64,000 nucleotides of DNA from Chloroflexota bacterium (GCA_016865895.1 VGNY01000001.1:1533-65532); one strand, 5' to 3'. Numbered from the stretch's first letter, positions 8,165 to 24,598 are shown. Notes: a model not told the origin generated them from the sequence alone. Made by a program: numbers and translations.

Positions 8165-8569
8165 ATGAATGAAGGAAAGAGGATTAGAGTTCTCATAGCT
8201 AAGCCCGGCCTCGATGGGCATGACCGTGGAGCTAAGGTGCTCGCCCTGGGACTGAGAGACGAGGGCATGGAGACTATTTATACCGGGCTAAGGCAGACCC
8301 CGGAAAAGATAGTTCAGTCAGCTATACAGGAGGATGTGGATGTTGTGGGGCTAAGCTGCCTCTCAGGCGCCCACAAATATCTTTTCCCCAGAGTAATTGA
8401 ACTGCTGAAAGAAAAAAAGGCGAAAGATGTTTTGGTTATCGGCGGTGGGATTATATCCCCAGAAGACATACCCTTCCTCAAGGAGAAAGGAGTAAGCGAG
8501 ATTTTCGGCCCAGGGACCTCGATTAAAGAAATAGCCGAATACATCCGCCAGAACGTAAAAGCCAGATAG
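8165..8569 (+). CDS. B12-binding small subunit of the acyl-CoA mutase
   Basis: 134 aa. DxHxxG cobalamin motif ([10 protein letters not shown]) and VIGGG segment. Lies 20 nt downstream of the large subunit. Confidence 0.85.
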
Positions 8570-10072: not shown

Positions 10073-10104
10073 AGCTGAATTGAGCAAGGATTCAGCTCTT
10101 TTTG
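10073..10104 (+). terminator. possible rho-independent terminator (8-bp stem agctgaat/attcagct followed by a T-run)
   Basis: Hairpin at 10073-10097 is followed by CTTTTTG. It overlaps the stop codon of the convergent minus-strand gene. The stem is AT-rich. Confidence 0.35.
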
Positions 10105-10859
10105 CTGGTTGGCGGAAACGGCCCGAACTGAACCCAATATAGAAGCTCCAGCATCCGCAGTTCTGTCATTTCAGTTTGGAGATGCTTCGATAATTCCCGT
10201 AGCGCCTGCAATCTCGGAAAATACTTTCGGCCAAATATTCGAAGTCTGTCCATACAGGTTACGATTCTATCGGCCTTGCTACCAAAGTCGACCCTTAGCG
10301 CCTCCAGGAGTACGCTGTCGCAGATCGGGATGAGTTTTGGCCGTTTCCGATGCAACGCCTTGGTCAACCTGGCAACACCAATGCCAGAATGTCTTAACAA
10401 CTTGGCAAGAACATCATGAACGACTCCTTTACGACTTTGCCATTCTAGGTCATTCATGCCGAACAAATCCCAGTCGCCAATTTGAGCAATAGACTCACCA
10501 ACAATTGGTGCCCATGTCTCGGCCGACATTCTGGCTGCTATCTGGTTCGCTATCCGCCTATCTTCATCGCTTATCTTATCTGGTTCAGACGGTACCACAC
10601 AATCGTATTTTGGGAATCTATTGAATCGCTTTAGGTAATAGATAAGGTCTTTTTCGGAGCGTTCCCAGTGGATTTCTTTTGCCTCGGATTTGATAAGAAC
10701 AGCATTGGCAACAGGCTTTCCTCTAATTTGTATTGAACCTAGTCTTTTACGCCTCAGTTTTTCAGCGCACTTCCGACAATGAACGATCTTTCGTCGCGCA
10801 TGAGCTTCAAACTTCTCACCACAGATTTCGCAAGTTAAGATGAGTAGTTGTTTGGCCAT
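10092..10859 (-). CDS. hypothetical protein: N-terminal CxxC-x14-CxxC zinc ribbon plus DUF6308-like/HhH-like C-terminal domain
   Basis: Zinc ribbon CEICGEKFEAHARRKIVHCRKC. GIGVARLTKALHRKRPKLIPICDSVL resembles the conserved KLL.RKRP.L.P..DS motif I recall for DUF6308 and OGG-fold-like families. Start moved to the MAKQLL ATG at 10859. Confidence 0.6.
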   Translation of the reverse strand: MAKQLLILTCEICGEKFEAHARRKIVHCRKCAEKLRRKRLGSIQIRGKPVANAVLIKSEAKEIHWERSEKDLIYYLKRFNRFPKYDCVVPSEPDKISDEDRRIANQIAARMSAETWAPIVGESIAQIGDWDLFGMNDLEWQSRKGVVHDVLAKLLRHSGIGVARLTKALHRKRPKLIPICDSVLLEALRVDFGSKADRIVTCMDRLRIFGRKYFPRLQALRELSKHLQTEMTELRMLELLYWVQFGPFPPTSKKS

Positions 10860-11028
10860 ATATGTCTCTCTGAATATTAGCATGGTCTATTATACCAATG
10901 CTATGAAAAAATTCTAGGTAGTACCGAATTGCACACAACTCGGGATTGTTTAGTATCCCCACTTACATTCCGCTGATTGAATCACTCCAAAATCCGCATC
11001 TTTTATCATGAAAATCGGCTAGAACCTC

Positions 11029-11057
11029 TTGACAAAGACAATCTTTAGGCTTATAAT
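11029..11057 (+). promoter_or_regulatory. consensus sigma70-type promoter TTGACA-17 nt-TATAAT
   Basis: TTGACA at 11029-11034, a 17-nt spacer, then TATAAT at 11052-11057. It lies ~38 nt upstream of the GGAGG SD (11083-11087) and the TTG start at 11095. Confidence 0.6.
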
Positions 11058-11094
11058 GTTACTGGCATATGCCACCATCAATTGGAGGTAATAT

Positions 11095-11889
11095 TTGACA
11101 CAAAGAGCTATGCAAATAAAAGGGGGTGATCTCTTAGTCAGGATTGCTGAAGTAGCAACCGTTCTAGGACAAGAAGGCCGGGAATTTAACAGGCACCTTG
11201 TCGGACAGTTTGAGGAGTGGAACAGGGTGAATGTCAAAGAGTTGATAGATGCCGCTACCATATCCAATGAGCATCTAATTTTCTATGAGGCGGTGGCACA
11301 GACACTTGGCTGGCTTCAACAAATACCAGTATTGAGGGAAGGCAGCATAAATGACCTGAAGGAAAGACTGTTGCACGTGCCAGTGATCTACCTGCAGGTA
11401 CTTTTGGAGGCTAGGGGTGGACTGGTCGAGGAGGCAGGTCAGCGGCTAATAGAACTGCTGGACCAAAGCAAGAAGGAAACCGAGGTGAAAAGACCTAGGA
11501 GACTTTTGGCTGTGATAGCTGGTCTGGAAACCTGGTCGAGGGTTCAATTGCCAGATGTGGGCCCCAGAGGAGTGCTGGACTTGGAAGAAGTACAGCGCCT
11601 AGCCTTAAGTGCCTGTGGGCGCGCTCGTTGGACAGCATTGGCACCACTGAAAATGTATGCCATCTATAAACTGTCCAAAAACGTGGTCCTACCAACCTTT
11701 AGAGGGTTATTTCCACCTATGGGCACCGCTGTTTCCAGGGGAATTGAGCGCATTTTTGGCTTCACCTTGGGAGAATCTGAGAACGACTATTCAATCTCAA
11801 GAGGGCTCCACTTGAGGCTGGCAGATTTGGCACAGATGACGATATGGGATATCAACTCCGGGTTCTACAGGCTGGGAGGCGGTTTCTGA
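11095..11889 (+). CDS. hypothetical protein (264 aa), first gene of the uncharacterised island operon
   Basis: TTG start 7 nt after GGAGG. Long ORF with normal composition. No family recognised. The C-terminal LFPPMGTAVSRGIERIFGF is only vaguely HhH-like. Confidence 0.55.
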   Translation: MTQRAMQIKGGDLLVRIAEVATVLGQEGREFNRHLVGQFEEWNRVNVKELIDAATISNEHLIFYEAVAQTLGWLQQIPVLREGSINDLKERLLHVPVIYLQVLLEARGGLVEEAGQRLIELLDQSKKETEVKRPRRLLAVIAGLETWSRVQLPDVGPRGVLDLEEVQRLALSACGRARWTALAPLKMYAIYKLSKNVVLPTFRGLFPPMGTAVSRGIERIFGFTLGESENDYSISRGLHLRLADLAQMTIWDINSGFYRLGGGF

Positions 11890-11942
11890 GAAAAAACTGC
11901 TCACATGATGAGCATCATAATGGCAATGAGAGGGTGATAATA

Positions 11943-12611
11943 ATGGTAAAAACCCAAATTCGGCATGGCATCGGCGATATAACAATCTCATACCCCAAAT
12001 TCCCTTTTGACGAGACATTCAATGGCGATGGTGGTGGCGGGGAAATTTGCTTTATCTGTGGCAAGACTATGGGTGAAGGAGAGTTATTCACCTGTGCATC
12101 CAGGCTGCTACAGACATGCGAAGGCGATAAAGTGAAACCCAAAGTAATTGAAGCTGTGGCATCGTTACAGGTATGTCTGCCGTGTACTCTGTTGTCTGCT
12201 TACGATAAGCTGCAGTGGGCACATAAACCAAAACTCACCAAGGTTGAACTGTATAGCTTCTACGCATATGCCAGCCTGTTAGCCAAGTCTATAACGTGGT
12301 TGAAGTCTGACAGCAGAGTACAAAAGGAGTTTATGGAACACCTCATTGAAGAAACCGATTATCTACCTGTTGAATTGGATAGAGCTGATCTCCTTGGGGG
12401 CATCTATGACAGTGTCCCAGCTGTAATCACTGATGGGCAGTGCTTGAGATGCAGCTCCGCCGTCAACCCCAGCAATCCTCATATAGAGTTTAAGATAGCG
12501 ATAGACATACCGGGGCACAAGGGAATGAGCTCGTCCAATATCTGGAGATTAGGCGAATACTGTGACCAGTGCTCAAACCAGCTGCTGCCACTGTGCAGCC
12601 GGTTATGGTGA
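11943..12611 (+). CDS. hypothetical double zinc-knuckle protein (two CxxC...CxxC pairs)
   Basis: Cys pairs CFIC...CLPC and CLRC...CDQC. The ATG at 11943 is preceded by GAGAGGGTGA. The ORF-track start at 11844 would overlap the previous gene by 46 nt. Confidence 0.55.
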   Translation: MVKTQIRHGIGDITISYPKFPFDETFNGDGGGGEICFICGKTMGEGELFTCASRLLQTCEGDKVKPKVIEAVASLQVCLPCTLLSAYDKLQWAHKPKLTKVELYSFYAYASLLAKSITWLKSDSRVQKEFMEHLIEETDYLPVELDRADLLGGIYDSVPAVITDGQCLRCSSAVNPSNPHIEFKIAIDIPGHKGMSSSNIWRLGEYCDQCSNQLLPLCSRLW

Positions 12612-12635
12612 AGATTCTCTTTAAAATATAGGAGT

Positions 12636-13016
12636 ATGTGCTGTTGTGAAGATAATCCTTCGTACAAAGGGAAAGGAGCAGAAAGGGCTATGGAGGTCAT
12701 AGGAGGAATTATCGTTCTTTTTCTGTTTAGCCTCCCTCTACTGGCAATATTTCTGCTATTACTATGTGTGTCTCTGAGATTACTTGCATGGCTATGTGAT
12801 GGCCTAGCCTGGTTGTGTGAGGGTCTAGGCAAAATATGTGAGGTGTTATTTGAAAGGAAAGGATCAACAATAACTCCCTATGCTTCCACCTGGGAACCTG
12901 ATGGAGGAGGTATAACTTGTAGCGCGGCTGCTACTGCACAAGAACTAAGCATGCCATCTGTTATGGGTGCAGTCGAACAATATATTTGTGGAACAAGAGA
13001 CACTAGTAAGGAATGA
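12636..13016 (+). CDS. small Cys-rich membrane protein (hypothetical)
   Basis: Hydrophobic segment VIGGIIVLFLFSLPLLAIFLLLLCVSL is followed by the repeated LAWLCDGLAWLCEGLGKIC. The real start may be the ATG at 12690, which has better SD spacing. Confidence 0.4.
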   Translation: MCCCEDNPSYKGKGAERAMEVIGGIIVLFLFSLPLLAIFLLLLCVSLRLLAWLCDGLAWLCEGLGKICEVLFERKGSTITPYASTWEPDGGGITCSAAATAQELSMPSVMGAVEQYICGTRDTSKE

Positions 13017-13022
13017 GATAAG

Positions 13023-13604
13023 GTGACAATGGATCTTACCCCCGGCGCATTTGCTGAACAAGTTCTTAAATGGTACCGAATCTGGGCGAATGCAAATCGC
13101 AATTATTTCCCGGTTGAGGAAAAACTATCAGACAAAGCTTCTCGTGTGGGTTATCTAAATATGGTTGACCTCATAGAAATAACAAGGGTGCTTGGTAATC
13201 CACATAACATAAGAGGTAGAGTTCAGACAGCAAACACTGAAGCAACCGTAATACGAGCCACTAAGAATGCAATTTTGCATCTAAATGAACCGATAGAGGC
13301 TTACAAAAGCATGTGTGAGATAAGACAATGGGGCTTGGCATATAGAACCAAGACCTTGCGTTGCATCTGTCCGCGAAATTATGCGGCACTTGATAGCAAA
13401 ATTCACGTATGCATAGACAGGCGCTACTTCCCATCGAGAGACGAGGGTAAGCGATATTGTGAGTTTCTTAACTTCATTGAGCATATAAAACAGAAAGTGT
13501 TAGTGCCTGGACCTCGGAATGGAGAATGGTTTATCGCTGACATAGAAATGGCACTATTCCAATTTGCTTGGGAGCCGAATAATAGGATTATATGGCCGGA
13601 ATGA
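13023..13604 (+). CDS. hypothetical protein, possibly OGG-fold/HhH-like (distantly related to the 10092-10859 product)
   Basis: WGLAYRTKTLRCICPRNYAALDSKIHVCID parallels the G.A..TK.L....P.....DS motif of the divergent gene. Start is GTG 13023 or ATG 13029. Confidence 0.5.
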   Translation: MTMDLTPGAFAEQVLKWYRIWANANRNYFPVEEKLSDKASRVGYLNMVDLIEITRVLGNPHNIRGRVQTANTEATVIRATKNAILHLNEPIEAYKSMCEIRQWGLAYRTKTLRCICPRNYAALDSKIHVCIDRRYFPSRDEGKRYCEFLNFIEHIKQKVLVPGPRNGEWFIADIEMALFQFAWEPNNRIIWPE

Positions 13605-13790
13605 GTTCTACAATATCCCAGCCTCTTTAGCAATTGTACTTAAACTCATTTTTTACCTGTCACACTTTGGCATTTGTTACTCTAATCCTTAGCTGGCAAC
13701 TTATTCAGCCTACACTAAATACTCTGCCATCACTGTGACTGTCAATTGTGTACTTCGAGACCATTTAGTAATTCCTACCCGTCATTGCGA

Positions 13791-13855
13791 GCAAAGCGTG
13801 GCAATCTCAAGGGGATTGCTTTGTCACTCCGTTCCTCGCAATGACAGTCTGAGTG
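13791..13855. repeat. MITE-like element, family A variant (termini GTCATTGCGAG ... CTCGCAATGAC), 65 bp
   Basis: Perfect 11-bp terminal inverted repeats. The internal cgtggcaatctc is shared with 6148-6159. The same termini are seen at 29063/29279 and 30422/30507. Confidence 0.7.
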
Positions 13856-13915
13856 AATAAACACTCTGCACTTCTGCGAAGACACTAGATTTTGCTTAAT
13901 AATCGCCTGCGATGG

Positions 13916-13995: not shown

Positions 13996-15366
13996 GTGAC
14001 AAAAGTGGCAACTGCCCTAAGGAGTCAAGTCGAAGAAGAGGAACCTCCAGGCCTTATCACCACGAGAAATGAAATGATAGTGGAGGAAGAAGAACCTCCA
14101 GGTAGGACGGCCGTTACCGATGGTACGGCCGTTATAAATGAGAATAGCTTCCCCACTCAAATCCAGCAGGAAAATTGGAGCGATTGGAAATGGCAATTTC
14201 GTAACCGAATCACCACTGTTGAAAAACTGGCGACTCTAATCCCCCTTTCAGCTAAAGAAAAAACTCAGCTTAAACTAGTAACCGCAAAATATCCTCTTTC
14301 AGTAACACCTTACTACCTCTCCCTAATCAACGTATACGACCCTCATGACCCTATCAGAAAACAGGCAATACCGGCTTTTGAAGAGATAACTCTTGGCCAC
14401 GTAGGTCTTGAAGACCCACTTGGAGAAAAAAGAGACTCTGTTGTCCCCGGACTGGTCCATCGCTACCCTGACAGAGTACTGATGGTGCTCACAGACATCT
14501 GCCCCATGCTTTGTCGCCACTGCACACGGAAAAGGGAGTGGCATAATGGCGGTTGGGTACACACTCCAGGTGAAATCAAAGCGATGTTGGACTACATCCA
14601 CAAGCACAAGACCATCAGAGACATTATCCTATCCGGCGGCGACCCGCTGACCCTTTCCACACGACGATTGGAAGACGTTATCTCCAAACTGAGGCAAATA
14701 GACCATGTTGAGATAATACGCATTGGCACCAGGTTCCCTGTGGTACTGCCGCAGCGCATAGACGATGAACTATGCACTATGCTCTCGAAATACGGGCCAA
14801 TATGGCTTAATACTCAATTCAACCACCATCACGAGATAACGCCAGAGTCAGCAGCGGCTTGCAACCGCCTCCTACGAGCTGGCATCCCGGTGAGCAATCA
14901 GTCGGTGCTTCTTCGGGACATAAACGACACCACAGAAAAACAGACAAAGCTATGCCACGGGCTTCTCAAGATAAAAGTACGCCCCTACTACCTTTTCCAG
15001 TGTGACGAAGTTCAAGGAACTGAGCACCTGCGCACTTCAGTAGAAACAGGCCTAAAAATAATAGAGGGGATGCGCGGCCATACCTCAGGCCTAGCTATAC
15101 CTACCTTTGTTATAGACCTACCAGAAGGCGGTGGCAAAGTTCCTCTCCAGCCGAACTATGTGTTAACACAAACAGAAGAAGAACTGGTACTGAGAAACTA
15201 CCAGGGGCGCTTCGTATGGTACCGGAACCCTAAAGATAAAGCCAGCCCTGAACTAACTACTGCAGCAGAATTAGATAATCCATTTGTCGACAGTTTTAAT
15301 GAAGCACAGCGCCAGCTCCAACCAGTGAGAGTCAGAAATGAGAATAGGGCTCGTATACGACCTTAA
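13996..15366 (+). CDS. kamA: lysine 2,3-aminomutase (KamA family radical SAM/PLP enzyme) with a repeat-containing N-terminal extension
   Basis: Cluster motif CPMLCRHCTRK. PLP-lysine motif PEGGGKVPL. The segment NWSDWKWQFRNRITTVEKL...PYYLSLI...PGLVHRYPDRVL is collinear with clostridial KamA as I recall it. Both lysine epsilon-amino-binding Asp residues are retained (QCD and VID-LPEGGGK). AAGGAG SD precedes the GTG start. Confidence 0.85.
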   Translation: MTKVATALRSQVEEEEPPGLITTRNEMIVEEEEPPGRTAVTDGTAVINENSFPTQIQQENWSDWKWQFRNRITTVEKLATLIPLSAKEKTQLKLVTAKYPLSVTPYYLSLINVYDPHDPIRKQAIPAFEEITLGHVGLEDPLGEKRDSVVPGLVHRYPDRVLMVLTDICPMLCRHCTRKREWHNGGWVHTPGEIKAMLDYIHKHKTIRDIILSGGDPLTLSTRRLEDVISKLRQIDHVEIIRIGTRFPVVLPQRIDDELCTMLSKYGPIWLNTQFNHHHEITPESAAACNRLLRAGIPVSNQSVLLRDINDTTEKQTKLCHGLLKIKVRPYYLFQCDEVQGTEHLRTSVETGLKIIEGMRGHTSGLAIPTFVIDLPEGGGKVPLQPNYVLTQTEEELVLRNYQGRFVWYRNPKDKASPELTTAAELDNPFVDSFNEAQRQLQPVRVRNENRARIRP

Positions 15367-16345
15367 AGAAGCCGTGCTCTCTGGGGCATACCTGCCAGAG
15401 GATGCCCTTGAGGAATATGATTCGCCTGAGACGATAGAGGCTATTGCCACAGCACTTCAGGCCGAGGGACACTCAGTGGTCAAACTAGGAAGCGGCAGGG
15501 AGTTCATAACTAACATCATCCATAATAACGTTGACTTTGTGTTCAACATCTCCGAAGGACGGGGCAACTATAGGAGCAGAGAGGCACAGGTGCCTTCTAT
15601 CCTGGAAATGCTCGGCATACCCTATTCTGGTTCAGACCCTCAGTGTCTGGCGATATGCTTGGACAAACCACTGACCAAGATATTAGTAGCAAGTGCTGGA
15701 ATTCGCACCCCAAAATGGCAGGTAATCACTAATGTCAGCCAGCTAAATCAAATAATCTGGGATGATTTCCCATTTCCCGCCTTCATCAAGCCAGCCTATG
15801 AAGGCTCAAGCAAAGGCATTCGCCTTGGCTCCCGAACAGAAACCGCGGCACAGACATGCCAAATAGCAGCGGAACTCCTGGAGCGCTACCAGCAACCGGT
15901 GATGATAGAGGAGTTCATCGCCGGCGATGAAATAACGGTTGGTGTCCTCGGCAACTCCCCAGCGACAATTCTAGGCATAATGCGTGTTCTGCCCAAGAAA
16001 AAGAGCGACTATTTCATTTATTCCCTCGAAGTGAAGAGAGAGTGGGTGCAATTGGTGGAGTATGAATGTCCCGCCGAATTGGGAAAGGACATTTTACAGG
16101 AAATTACAAACTCGAGTCTCAAGATGTTTGAAACTTTGGGCTGTCGTGATTTTGCCCGAATTGACTTCAAACTCAGCCCTGAGGGATTACCTTACTTCCT
16201 TGAGATAAATCCACTAGCCGGGCTCAATCCAACGAGCAGTGACTTGCTACTAATGGCCTATAAACTTGGCTGGACATACCAAGCTCTTATTTCAGCTATA
16301 CTCAATGCCGCTCTACAAAGGTACCCACAGTGCGTCCGCGGATAG
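15338..16345 (+). CDS. ATP-grasp ligase, D-alanine--D-alanine ligase family (substrate unknown)
   Basis: 335 aa. Ddl-like layout: N-terminal MRIGLVYDLK, central ATP-grasp FPAFIKPAYEGSSKGI, and C-terminal RIDF...YFLEINPLAGL. Overlaps the kamA 3' end by 29 nt. Confidence 0.75.
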   Translation: MRIGLVYDLKEAVLSGAYLPEDALEEYDSPETIEAIATALQAEGHSVVKLGSGREFITNIIHNNVDFVFNISEGRGNYRSREAQVPSILEMLGIPYSGSDPQCLAICLDKPLTKILVASAGIRTPKWQVITNVSQLNQIIWDDFPFPAFIKPAYEGSSKGIRLGSRTETAAQTCQIAAELLERYQQPVMIEEFIAGDEITVGVLGNSPATILGIMRVLPKKKSDYFIYSLEVKREWVQLVEYECPAELGKDILQEITNSSLKMFETLGCRDFARIDFKLSPEGLPYFLEINPLAGLNPTSSDLLLMAYKLGWTYQALISAILNAALQRYPQCVRG

Positions 16346-17328
16346 CGATTATCTATAATGAGCCTAACCCTGACCTCTATGGCACCATAGTAGAAAAGAA
16401 AGCATCGCTTGCTATCCTCACAGGGATGGAGGCAATCCATCAAGCTCTAACCGATTCAGGATATCCTGTCATTCGCATACCTTTAATACCACCACTCGAG
16501 TCAGCTAGAGAAAGGCTCAAAAACATTGAAGCAGACCTGGTGTTCAGCCTCTTCGAAGGTTTTGATGGTCAGCCGGAAGCTGAGGCAGCTATAGTAAATT
16601 CCCTTTCAAAGCTCGGGCTAACCTACACTGGTTGTCCCGGAACTGCCCTGTCTCTGGCACTGGATAAAGTGAGGACAAAGACACGCCTGGATGCAATAGA
16701 CGTAGACACACCCGATTACCAGCTATTAAGCCCCGAGACCGTTTCCATGTTTCACATGAGTTACCCTTGTATCGTCAAACCGTACGCAGAGGACGGAAGC
16801 AATGGTATAACAGAGGAAAGCGTGGTGTACGACTTCACCTCGTTACAAAATCAAGTGAGGACAATAAGTGAGCGCTTCAGAGGAAGAGCACTGGTGGAGG
16901 AATTTGTGGATGGCCGCGAATTCAATATTACAGTCCTTGGAGACAAGAAGCCTACACCTCTGCCTATCTCCGAGATAGTCTACTCCCTGCCACCGGAGAT
17001 GCCAAAGATTCTCACCTTCTCTGCTAAATGGGAACCACAAAGTGTATATTTCGAGAATACCAAAGCTGTCTGTCCCGCTGAGATAAGCGCTGAACTGCAA
17101 GAGCGCATCATAAAGACCGCCGTTTCCGCCTTTAGGCTGCTGGGGCGCCATGGCTATGCCAGAGTAGATTTTCGATTGGATAGCGAAGGCAAACTTAAGA
17201 TAATAGACCTGAACCCCAATCCTGACATATCCCCCGACTCCGGAGCAGCACTTCAAGCCAGCGCTAAGGGAATGAACTACAACCAGTTTATTGAAAAAAT
17301 CGTGCTGCTCGCCCTTGAAAAGGAATAG
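16330..17328 (+). CDS. second ATP-grasp ligase, Ddl family paralogue (substrate unknown)
   Basis: 332 aa. Motifs YPCIVKPYAEDGSNGI and ARVDFRLDSEGKLKIIDLNPNPD. GTG start overlaps the previous gene by 16 nt. Confidence 0.75.
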   Translation: MRPRIAIIYNEPNPDLYGTIVEKKASLAILTGMEAIHQALTDSGYPVIRIPLIPPLESARERLKNIEADLVFSLFEGFDGQPEAEAAIVNSLSKLGLTYTGCPGTALSLALDKVRTKTRLDAIDVDTPDYQLLSPETVSMFHMSYPCIVKPYAEDGSNGITEESVVYDFTSLQNQVRTISERFRGRALVEEFVDGREFNITVLGDKKPTPLPISEIVYSLPPEMPKILTFSAKWEPQSVYFENTKAVCPAEISAELQERIIKTAVSAFRLLGRHGYARVDFRLDSEGKLKIIDLNPNPDISPDSGAALQASAKGMNYNQFIEKIVLLALEKE

Positions 17329-17330
17329 GG

Positions 17331-17810
17331 ATGGGACCCACCATCAGGCCAATGACTAGCGAGGACAAACCAGCTATAATGCGGATGCTACGCAAAATAC
17401 CAGAATTCAAACCAATCGAAGTAGATATAGCTGAGGAAGTTCTCGAAGACTATCTGCAAAAACCAAATCATGGTGGTTACCACGTTTTCGTGGCAGAAGC
17501 TGGCTCGTCAATCAGAGGCTATATTTGCTACGGGACTACTCCCCTGACCGAGGGAACCTGGGACATATACTGGCTAGCAGTTGCTCCCAGTGAACAGAGA
17601 CGGGGCGTAGGAAAAGCCCTGCTCGCATTCGCCGAGGATAAAATCAAGAATACTAAGGGAAGGTTAGCCCTCATTGAAACGTCCTCCAAGCCGGAATATG
17701 AGAGAACAAGGCGTTTCTACCGCTCCCAAGGCTACACATTAGCCTGCCGAATCGCCGACTTCTACGCGCCAGGTGATGATAAGCTGGTTTTCCAGAAGCG
17801 GCTCGGGTAG
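17331..17810 (+). CDS. GNAT-family N-acetyltransferase
   Basis: 159 aa. Acetyl-CoA binding motif LAVAPSEQRRGVGKALL. Starts 3 nt after the preceding stop. Confidence 0.8.
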   Translation: MGPTIRPMTSEDKPAIMRMLRKIPEFKPIEVDIAEEVLEDYLQKPNHGGYHVFVAEAGSSIRGYICYGTTPLTEGTWDIYWLAVAPSEQRRGVGKALLAFAEDKIKNTKGRLALIETSSKPEYERTRRFYRSQGYTLACRIADFYAPGDDKLVFQKRLG

Positions 17811-23320: not shown

Positions 23321-23611
23321 ATGCCACCTCACTAACTTGTATCTTATCAATATGTTCACTCCCTAATCAAAAAATAACGTGAGGACGAGTCTTCAAACTC
23401 GTCCGAAACGGATAGACCTGCCTGCCCCGAGTCGGCCACCTCCCGACCGAGGCAGTGGGAAAATCTATCCCTATACCTGTGAGATGAAATAAATGGGTCA
23501 ATGACTTACTAACAGGTCTCAAGCCTATTGACGCAGAACGCTTTAAGTCATAACATATAGCTGCAATAACAGGGATGCGCTGCACTGCAGCACTTCTGAT
23601 GGAGGGTAAAA

Positions 23612-24598
23612 ATGAAATGTCCACAATGCCAGGCCGACAATATCGATACTGCAGAATTCTGTGGCAATTGCGGGGCAAAATTGGATAAGGCCTGTCCCCA
23701 GTGCGGTACAAGTAATCCTGCTCAATATGCCTTCTGCGGCGAGTGTGGTTATGACCTACGTTCTGTTCCAATCCCTGCACCCAGTGCTGCAGAACCAACA
23801 CCTGAAGTCCCAGAACCAGCACCAACAGTAGCCGCAGAGCCTATACTTGAGACTCCAGAACCAGCGCCGATGGTAACAGGGCAAATTAAGGTGCACCGGA
23901 GGATACCAACCGGCATCGAAGGACTTGACCAGCTTATCGGAGGAGGCTTCATAGCCAACAAAGTCTACCTGATAAGCGGCGAATCCGGCACTGGCAAGAC
24001 CGTCTTCGGACTGCAATACCTTTACTACGGGCTTATCGTAGGCGAAAATGGCATCTACGTCTCCGGTGATGAAAAGCCGAGCCATCTCATTGTGGACGCT
24101 GAGTCATTGGGTTGGGACTTCAGCAAATATGCGCATGAGCAGAAACTAGGACTGCTCGATGTGTCACCACACTTTACTGAGCTGCGTTCTGGTAAAACAA
24201 AGTATGTTGATGTCCGCACCGTAGTCGCTGACCTGGCAAAACACGCCAAGACTATAGATGCCAAACGGATTGTTATTGACCCGATAGGGCCACTTGTCTT
24301 TGGACAGGAATGCGCAGCTTGTGTGCAGGAGTACATCAGGAATCTTATATTTGCCATCGAAGATAACCTGCAATGCACAGTTTTGATTACCTCTGGCATA
24401 CCGTCCGGGACTTCAGCTTTATCTCGCTATGGTGTTGCGGAGTTCGTTGCCGAAGGTGTAATCGTGCTAGGTATGAGCAAGAGCGACAGTGAATGTACTC
24501 GCACGCTCTTCATACGGAAGATGCGCAGCACCCCCACAGACCTCTGTGAGCATGTCTTCGATATCCTCCCTCACAGGGGCATAGTAATCAAGGAATAA
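23612..24598 (+). CDS. KaiC/RecA-like ATPase with N-terminal double zinc ribbon and Pro/Glu-rich repeat linker
   Basis: Four CxxC pairs (CPQC, CGNC, CPQC, CGEC). Linker PTPEVPEPAPTVAAEPILETPEPAP. Walker A GESGTGKT within a KaiC-like domain (IEGLDQLIGGGF). Confidence 0.75.
   Translation: MKCPQCQADNIDTAEFCGNCGAKLDKACPQCGTSNPAQYAFCGECGYDLRSVPIPAPSAAEPTPEVPEPAPTVAAEPILETPEPAPMVTGQIKVHRRIPTGIEGLDQLIGGGFIANKVYLISGESGTGKTVFGLQYLYYGLIVGENGIYVSGDEKPSHLIVDAESLGWDFSKYAHEQKLGLLDVSPHFTELRSGKTKYVDVRTVVADLAKHAKTIDAKRIVIDPIGPLVFGQECAACVQEYIRNLIFAIEDNLQCTVLITSGIPSGTSALSRYGVAEFVAEGVIVLGMSKSDSECTRTLFIRKMRSTPTDLCEHVFDILPHRGIVIKE

Follow-up and report, generated by a model that had tools for sequence, protein, structure and literature searches.

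The window analyzed here, a 64,000-nucleotide stretch of DNA from an uncultured Chloroflexota bacterium of the class Dehalococcoidia (GCA_016865895.1, VGNY01000001.1:1533-65532), contains a compact island of five genes, called g1 to g5 in the following. All five open reading frames (ORFs) proposed in a first-pass annotation of the sequence are present (Table 1), with start codons refined from homolog alignments, gene calls for public contigs of identical sequence, and ribosome-binding sites. The four plus-strand genes are tightly spaced, which makes an operon of g2 to g5 plausible, and the promoter consensus ahead of g2, in the space between the divergent genes, matches at 12 of 12 positions. 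In agreement with the first-pass annotation, searches of Pfam, NCBIfam, and PADLOC placed none of the products in a housekeeping family. We found that three of the five proteins (g1, g2, and g5) have diverged helix-hairpin-helix (HhH) glycosylase folds or signatures, with g1 included through its profile-profile (hhalign) link to g5.

Table 1. Genes and other features of the island and its flanks, with positions counted from the first nucleotide of the window
Feature	Position	Strand	Description
g1	10092-10862	-	Zinc ribbon (CxxC...CxxC) at the N terminus fused to DUF6308; PF19827 E = 1.6e-12
Promoter consensus	11029-11057	+	TTGACA, 17 nt, TATAAT; sigma-70-type putative promoter by consensus match
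g2	11095-11889	+	AGOG-like HhH-GPD-superfamily glycosylase fold (predicted model); core gene
g3	11943-12611	+	Two zinc-knuckle groups, nine invariant Cys; conserved partner of g2
g4	12690-13016	+	Small Cys-rich membrane protein, single pass; hydrophobic helix at residues 7-25
g5	13029-13604	+	OGG-like HhH fold (predicted model); invariant Lys108 and Asp122
Nested palindrome, REP/MITE-like	13781-13845		Inverted repeat, RNA fold z-score -3.6; contains an 11-mer seen in other Dehalococcoidia loci

The best-supported glycosylase fold of the island is the one predicted for g2, a protein previously left as a 264-residue unknown. Its AlphaFold2 model, built with 24 homologs (predicted local distance difference test [pLDDT] 86; predicted template modeling [pTM] score 0.86), was compared with the Protein Data Bank (PDB) using Foldseek. 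The best eight matches were all AGOG (E = 8e-3 to 3e-2, probability 1.0, template modeling [TM] score 0.43-0.54, about 250 aligned columns), followed at rank nine by MjOgg, and the best nine matches span probabilities of 0.91-1.0. OGG1 and MutY appear further down the list, amid unrelated helical proteins. In contrast to this similarity in the predicted model, g2 and its 24 relatives matched no Pfam family even up to E = 10, the AGOG model included, and the g2 family profile did not match the AGOG chains in the PDB; the resemblance of the modeled protein to AGOG is one of fold only, not of sequence. The C-terminal third of g2 comprises a hairpin (PPMG), a helix (AVSRGIERIFG), a Gly-rich loop (LGESEND), and then the invariant Asp231, which starts the next helix. 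Since the second HhH helix has no Lys, with Ser214 and Arg215 there instead, g2 is probably not a bifunctional lyase, and from its sequence we infer the residue arrangement of a monofunctional HhH-GPD enzyme. The family is strongly conserved, with a mean column identity of 59%.

An OGG-like HhH fold of g5 is supported weakly but coherently by its predicted model (AlphaFold2, pLDDT 96). Nearly all of the top ~39 Foldseek matches in the PDB belong to the HhH-GPD superfamily and are mostly glycosylases, the structures named being SsOgg, MutY, EndoIII, OGG1, MagIII, and Qng1 (DUF2419/Qng1 among ranks 26-50). The structural comparison suggested with the first-pass annotation, carried out for g2 and g5, gave g5 weak matches in the HhH-GPD superfamily, in line with the earlier supposition, and added an AGOG-like fold for g2 that had not been foreseen. 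Sequence profiles point the same way: the g5 family profile reached the Ogg2 chain 9o02 in the PDB at E = 0.12, and four of 27 family members weakly touched PF21790 "OGG" (best E = 0.0017), a family to which g5 itself showed no match, remaining below every Pfam threshold. Searches of the viral fold library BFVD gave weak matches only, including an amino acid:DNA transferase at rank 9 and aGPT-Pplase1 at rank 35. The motif claimed for g5, WGLAYRTKTLRCICPRNYAALDSKI, is present, and of the two invariant residues, the Lys lies in the second HhH helix and the Asp at the start of the next helix.

By its profile score, g1 is a genuine DUF6308 member (48.1 bits against PF19827, with a gathering cut-off of 27.3), and the zinc ribbon and the DUF6308 motif described earlier are both there; the g1 homolog at one related locus (L037) scores 52 bits. 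When 1.84 billion representatives were searched in full with HMMER, 218 DUF6308 relatives were recovered, and in a 77-sequence alignment of the family, Lys168, Leu170, and Asp182 are the sole invariant residues. Residue numbers refer to the 256-residue translation of 10092-10862, the first residue of which precedes the Met start of the gene callers. In g1, a spacing of 14 residues separates the family-invariant Lys168 and Asp182 and a Pro occurs at +7, an arrangement also seen in g5, and the motif common to the two families is G-x-[GA]...TK-x-L-[HR]...P...D-S. While BLASTP of g1 against g5 gave no significant match and hhalign with shallow alignments drawn from the loci did not reach significance, hhalign of the 77-sequence DUF6308 profile against the g5 family aligned 64 columns centered on the motif (P = 3.6e-4, probability 37%) and superimposed the Lys-Asp pairs of the two families. 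On these profiles, the "echo" between g1 and g5 appears real and beyond chance, and probably reflects distant homology, with modest support. Neither the comparison of DUF6308 with g2 nor that with c2, a family found at related loci (see below), was significant in hhalign, and g2 is therefore not claimed as a sequence paralog of g1 or g5. PF21790 was the most frequent secondary match among DUF6308 members (4 of 77). Searches of PDB sequences with the g1 and g2 family profiles were uninformative, as were single-protein PDB sequence searches, and in the literature library searched, no paper on DUF6308, PF19827, or an "OGG fold protein" was found.

Asp231 of g2, Asp122 of g5, and Asp182 of DUF6308 are each invariant, and in the g2 and g5 models, this residue begins the helix that comes after the hairpin-helix. 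From sequence and secondary structure, rather than a three-dimensional superposition, we infer that these Asp residues are the equivalent of the HhH-GPD catalytic Asp. The Lys-Asp spacing is 14 in both g5 (Lys108) and DUF6308 (Lys168), both Lys being invariant and assigned to the second HhH helix; in EndoIII, OGG1, and MjOgg, it is approximately 18-19 residues. The first-pass annotation had proposed two distant HhH/OGG-like paralogs in the island. The fold of g5 and the modest g1-g5 profile match agree with this proposal, but the count does not: because g2 is AGOG-like, the island holds three glycosylase-type modules, not two. Purifying selection is clear in all families examined (g2, g3, and g5 alignments).

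The other two genes encode proteins of the kinds originally described. The double CxxC...CxxC pattern of g3 corresponds to C36, C39, C51, C78, and C81 in the first group, and C167, C170, C207, and C210 in the second. The single helix of g4 is strongly hydrophobic (Kyte-Doolittle 3.14) and is followed by a Cys-rich amphipathic stretch, LAWLCDGLAWLCEGL. Homologs or analogs of g4 (families g4, c23, and c39) occupy the same position in other loci. The suggestion that g4 acts as a membrane effector is conjecture. At L012 (2600-3130), a g4-like ORF is extended by about 100 residues (...FQLVVDGQAFPPKYVVSLSKQ...) with no Pfam match, and this extension could be either a fusion to a soluble domain or an assembly or frameshift artifact.

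Related loci were anchored on the g2 family (two GTDB species representatives and 31 Joint Genome Institute [JGI] metagenome loci), and contigs with individual homologs were added, yielding ~45 related loci in all, on which genes were mapped by tblastn and clustering. These ~45 loci all derive from Dehalococcoidia metagenome-assembled genomes (MAGs) or from metagenomes, and the cluster has so far been seen only in uncultured Dehalococcoidia; among 185,579 GTDB species representatives, g2 was found in two, both Dehalococcoidia MAGs. Directly after g2 comes g3 in 22 of the 29 loci with enough downstream sequence (one copy is frameshifted), and other families recur with the pair in varied orders.

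What follows the g2-g3 pair varies between loci. At six loci, the third position is held by a g4-like membrane protein together with c4, a protein of ~209 residues with the motif DFFVPxPGxIVEFDESQHF and a weak, sub-threshold match to the Vsr-like nuclease domain of AbaSI (E = 0.17); c4 is missing from the window. Seven independent loci instead carry c2 (~241 residues), which has Cys clusters at its N and C termini, weakly matches MjOgg, EndoIII, and Tag, and is followed by a small membrane protein and then a DUF4352 lipoprotein. A g1-type zinc-ribbon-DUF6308 protein lies directly after g3 on the same strand at L031 and L037, and in the window, the position is taken by g4 and g5, with g1 divergent. 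At a single locus (L033, 2392-4576), a divergent g2-g3 pair has downstream of it a 283-residue Ogg-HhH-like protein (weak Pfam match), followed by an ADP-ribosylglycohydrolase (E = 1e-34) and an RNase_H_2-superfamily protein (E = 5e-39), gene content that suggests a possible connection with DNA ADP-ribosylation or with nucleic-acid processing of another kind. A small membrane protein usually accompanies the third module.

Further arrangements involve g5. L040 and L041 share the order g2, 64-residue ORF, g5, 45-residue ORF, and CpXC protein, and in L040 (8476-9369), the CpXC domain is joined to a C-terminal half resembling g3 (BLASTP E = 1e-10). At L042, a 60-residue zinc-ribbon protein (8210-8392) with weak likeness to the g1 N terminus (BLASTP E = 0.05) precedes a stand-alone g5 that also adjoins a DUF4352 protein. 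Judged by such gene architectures, OGG-like domains and zinc ribbons appear to move between arrangements as whole units. Overall, the same families are linked in at least four orders or orientations across sequences only 30-60% identical, and this repeated linkage is an argument that the families are functionally coupled, with g2-g3 as the core and DNA-acting partners that can be exchanged. The five genes had initially been taken as one candidate system, but the related loci show that they are not a fixed set: only g2-g3 is a stable pair, third modules interchange, and both g2 and g5 are also found alone. A fixed five-gene system is thus excluded by the modular synteny across loci.

Homologs of g5 also occur on Pseudomonas megaplasmids of two families, including pQBR103 (BLASTP E = 9e-12), where they are currently annotated as hypothetical. 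In all four megaplasmid cases inspected (L046, which is pQBR103 82278-84230, and L048, L049, and L050), the homolog lies directly downstream of a 426-residue Mrr_N-N6/N4 DNA methyltransferase, with a UvrD-like helicase close by and differing downstream genes. This conserved pairing connects the g5 family with DNA modification. By analogy, it resembles a restriction-modification system with a glycosylase replacing the nuclease and is a candidate "restriction glycosylase". No copies of g1, g2, or g5 were detected by tblastn in GenBank phages, nor of g2 or g5 in IMG/VR scans, and a plasmid search for g1 gave no match.

Based on these results, we estimate at roughly 0.75 the probability that the locus is an HhH-glycosylase-based, DNA-acting module. 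That it is more specifically a modular DNA base-excision system, leaning to the surveillance of modified or foreign DNA, is a tentative proposal to which we give slightly less than even odds. In the proposed mechanism, g2, with its Asp only, would be a monofunctional glycosylase that flips out a non-canonical base and removes it, or at the minimum reads it, and the zinc ribbons of g3 would supply DNA binding or regulation. Both g1 and g5, with Lys and Asp, could then act as glycosylase/apurinic-apyrimidinic (AP) lyases that break the strand at the lesion or abasic site, a role that the Vsr/AbaSI-like nuclease would take at other loci. The likeliest targets would be modified bases in foreign DNA, which would make the cluster a multi-component relative of the single-gene antiviral Dag/Brig glycosylases discussed below. 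The strongest version of this proposal, an undescribed multi-component anti-foreign-DNA system in which g2-g3 detect modified bases and pass the site to exchangeable cleavage modules, we consider unlikely; in such a base-excision restriction complex, the small membrane protein might be a tether or secondary effector. The rarity of g2 in GTDB, the varying flanks, and the low guanine-cytosine (GC) content of the island support an accessory character of the cluster.

Several results weigh against this interpretation. The Foldseek matches are modest for g2 (E about 1e-2) and weak for g5 (best E = 0.13, TM score 0.41 or lower). Proteins g2 to g5 were unmatched in Pfam, NCBIfam, PADLOC, and PHROGs, with DUF6308 the only family for g1, and PADLOC-DB v2 gave chance-level matches to the g1 zinc-ribbon region (E ~2e-3) and none for g2 to g5. 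In one clade g2 occurs alone, as does g5 at L042 and L044, and an obligatory multi-protein mechanism is therefore not established. Over ~10 kb upstream and ~17 kb downstream of the island, every annotated gene has a metabolic or other housekeeping function, and no integrase, transposase, or defense gene occurs in that range. Most other loci have housekeeping neighbors as well, the exceptions being an N6/N4 DNA methyltransferase (L019), a serine-recombinase fragment (L004), and HicB (L042).

Such neighborhoods fit a lineage-specific housekeeping system for base-excision repair of endogenous oxidized or alkylated bases in Dehalococcoidia, in which variation of the third gene would be ordinary paralog turnover. 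Dehalococcoidia genomes are small, with a reduced repair gene set, and the nearest structural matches are the repair enzymes AGOG, Ogg2, MutY, EndoIII, and Tag. The g2-g3 pair is located after radA-ispD at L014, and methylmalonyl-CoA mutase, B12-binding, and CoA-transferase genes lie near three divergent loci (the window, L031, and L003). A repair function would also suit the strong conservation of g2, the genome-typical GC of g2 and g3, and the lack of g2 in phage, plasmid, and IMG/VR searches. However, very few genomes carry g2, the accessory modules are swapped in a cassette-like manner and include the restriction-type Vsr/AbaSI-like nuclease, the g5 relatives on megaplasmids are paired with a DNA methyltransferase, and the small membrane protein has no obvious repair role. 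We consider housekeeping repair somewhat unlikely.

The weak matches of g5 to DUF2419/Qng1, amino acid:DNA transferase, and aGPT-Pplase1 could alternatively indicate HhH-like proteins that modify or salvage nucleobases, like the phage thymine-hypermodification enzymes (aGPT-Pplase and amino acid:DNA transferase) or the queuosine hydrolase Qng1/DUF2419, and the ADP-ribosylglycohydrolase at L033 and a GNAT gene ~0.7 kb downstream of the cluster at another locus would be in keeping with this. Those matches (E = 1.2 to 5) are nonetheless far weaker than the glycosylase matches, the conserved set has no kinase, pyridoxal phosphate (PLP) enzyme, radical S-adenosylmethionine (SAM) enzyme, or nucleotide-biosynthesis gene, and an invariant Lys-Asp pair is what classically marks a glycosylase/lyase, all of which make nucleobase modification or salvage very improbable. 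A further possibility is that there is no system at all, the genes being orphans in a variable intergenic hotspot, or g2 and g3 being a toxic glycosylase and its zinc-ribbon inhibitor, a toxin-antitoxin-like pair with no relation to g1, g4, and g5. The solitary occurrences of g2 and g5 speak for this, as do the GC of g4 and g5 below that of g2 and g3, suggesting separate histories, the repetitive extragenic palindromic (REP)-like elements flanking the genes, and the HicB antitoxin adjoining g5 in L042. Set against it are the recurrence of the families together in different orders and orientations despite their divergence, the tight spacing of g2 to g5 behind one strong promoter consensus, and the purifying selection in all families, and we find an assemblage of unconnected genes quite improbable, if less so than nucleobase modification or salvage.

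The long non-coding gaps described on either side of the island are real (240 and 391 bp). The downstream gap contains a nested palindrome of 65 nt, GTCATTGCGAGC...GCAATGAC, in line with the earlier suspicion of a miniature inverted-repeat transposable element (MITE). An 11-mer of the palindrome was found again in at least eight independent Dehalococcoidia loci, which identifies it as a dispersed REP/MITE-like element; positions include L004 10846, L006 1044, L013 34, L014 5728/6542/6653, L035 480, and L042 6641, and copies frequently sit right behind the g2 stop codon. The palindrome flanks the cluster and probably does not belong to the system. It also produces spurious small ORFs, such as 13735-13860. 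At 10073-10097, a terminator-like hairpin with a T-run (plus strand) overlaps the final codons and stop of the minus-strand g1, and from its sequence it may serve the CoA-transferase operon and g1 alike, as a terminator that is shared or works in both directions. Scans of the window for Rfam families and tRNAs were negative. The GC content of the island is 44.9% versus 47.8% elsewhere in the window (2.9 points lower; ninth lowest among 120 equal-sized windows), and the drop stems from g4 and g5, with g2 and g3 at genome-typical GC.

Genes flanking the island encode a TRAP transporter, enoyl-CoA hydratase, methylmalonyl-CoA mutase and its B12 subunit, and CoA transferase, as well as lysine 2,3-aminomutase, two ATP-grasp ligases, GNAT, glycogen phosphorylase, and a glycyl-radical enzyme. 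The island sits between two metabolic gene clusters, rather than clearly interrupting two metabolic operons as first described. Flanking contexts differ between loci. A mobile-element or prophage island was ruled out, there being no integrase, transposase, or phage gene. Immediately downstream, 13996-17810 encodes the lysine 2,3-aminomutase, two D-Ala-D-Ala-ligase-like ATP-grasp enzymes, and the GNAT acetyltransferase, which by sequence resemble beta-lysine/N-acetyl-beta-lysine (ablAB) osmolyte genes plus two extra ligases, and the product might be a beta-lysine peptide. Further along, 23612-24598 encodes a KaiC/RadA-like ATPase whose N terminus carries a double zinc ribbon (DZR and Zn_Ribbon_1); an opposite-strand ORF (23367-23825) overlaps the first 214 bases of its gene.

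Glycosylase-based DNA surveillance and repair is already known; what would be new here is its modular, multi-component form, made up of families without annotation. If our interpretation holds, the 200-plus-cluster DUF6308 family and the families of g2 and g5 would be diverged HhH DNA glycosylases, and the compact catalytic signature Lys-x13-Asp of DUF6308 and g5 would be one that they have in common with Dag1, an antiviral enzyme validated by experiment. Glycosylase DNA surveillance would then extend beyond single genes to a modular operon in which the zinc-ribbon partner is conserved and the effectors interchange, and Dehalococcoidia, an uncultured and environmentally important class, would have in the cluster a first candidate for a module of their own for nucleic-acid surveillance or repair. 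Should the base-excision restriction complex be correct, it would give DUF6308 and PF21790 their first functional context, in a phylum with poorly studied phages. The methyltransferase-g5-like pair of the megaplasmids is a candidate directly testable in culturable hosts.

Among known systems, restriction glycosylases and modification-dependent nucleases (R.PabI, AbaSI/PvuRts1I, and Brig1) likewise use base excision or modified-base recognition against foreign DNA. The motif of the c4 module, D-x-[FY]-x-P...E-x-D-E-x-x-H-F, recalls AbaSI, to which its match is sub-threshold. R.PabI, a HALFPIPE-fold enzyme, differs in fold from the HhH proteins of the island, and the window has no methyltransferase. 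AGOG, the archaeal 8-oxoguanine glycosylase/lyase (PDB 1xqo, 7ou3, and 7oue), resembles the g2 model over ~250 residues, whereas g2 is bacterial, is only 12-13% identical to it in sequence with no match to the Pfam AGOG model, lacks the Lys in the second HhH helix, and is paired with a zinc-ribbon gene. The putative OGG-like family PF21790, weakly touched by both the g5 and DUF6308 families, is uncharacterized, as is PF19827. Brig1 is UDG-like (bioRxiv 10.1101/2025.10.29.685425), again a fold unlike that of the island proteins.

No PADLOC model matched the island, but the original impression that it matches no known architecture needs qualification, since antiviral HhH glycosylases were described in 2025, as single genes. 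These are the Dag family (Dag1-Dag17), unannotated HhH-superfamily glycosylases that are sequence orphans from Vibrio integrons and destroy 7-deazaguanine-modified phage DNA (Getz et al., 2025; bioRxiv 10.1101/2025.10.29.685425). Their homologs are found mainly in Pseudomonadota, Bacillota, and Bacteroidota, not Chloroflexota, and ~45% of them lie in integrons or ≤20 kb from defense or mobile-element genes (bioRxiv 10.1101/2025.10.29.685425). The island differs in its Chloroflexota host and in its metabolic, non-mobile neighborhood, with no integron and no defense or mobile gene in the ~10 kb upstream and ~17 kb downstream within the window. Dags are also single genes, whereas here two or three glycosylase-fold genes are combined with a zinc-ribbon partner and a membrane protein. 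Compared by published description, Dags and the island nevertheless share a mildly low GC region and sequence-orphan proteins of the predicted HhH glycosylase superfamily, with structures in the vicinity of AGOG, Ogg, and Tag (bioRxiv 10.1101/2025.10.29.685425). The likeness extends to Dag1 K118 and D132, which lie near the predicted active site (K118 is essential for defense, D132 partly so; bioRxiv 10.1101/2025.10.29.685425) and have the same 14-residue Lys-Asp spacing as g5 and DUF6308.

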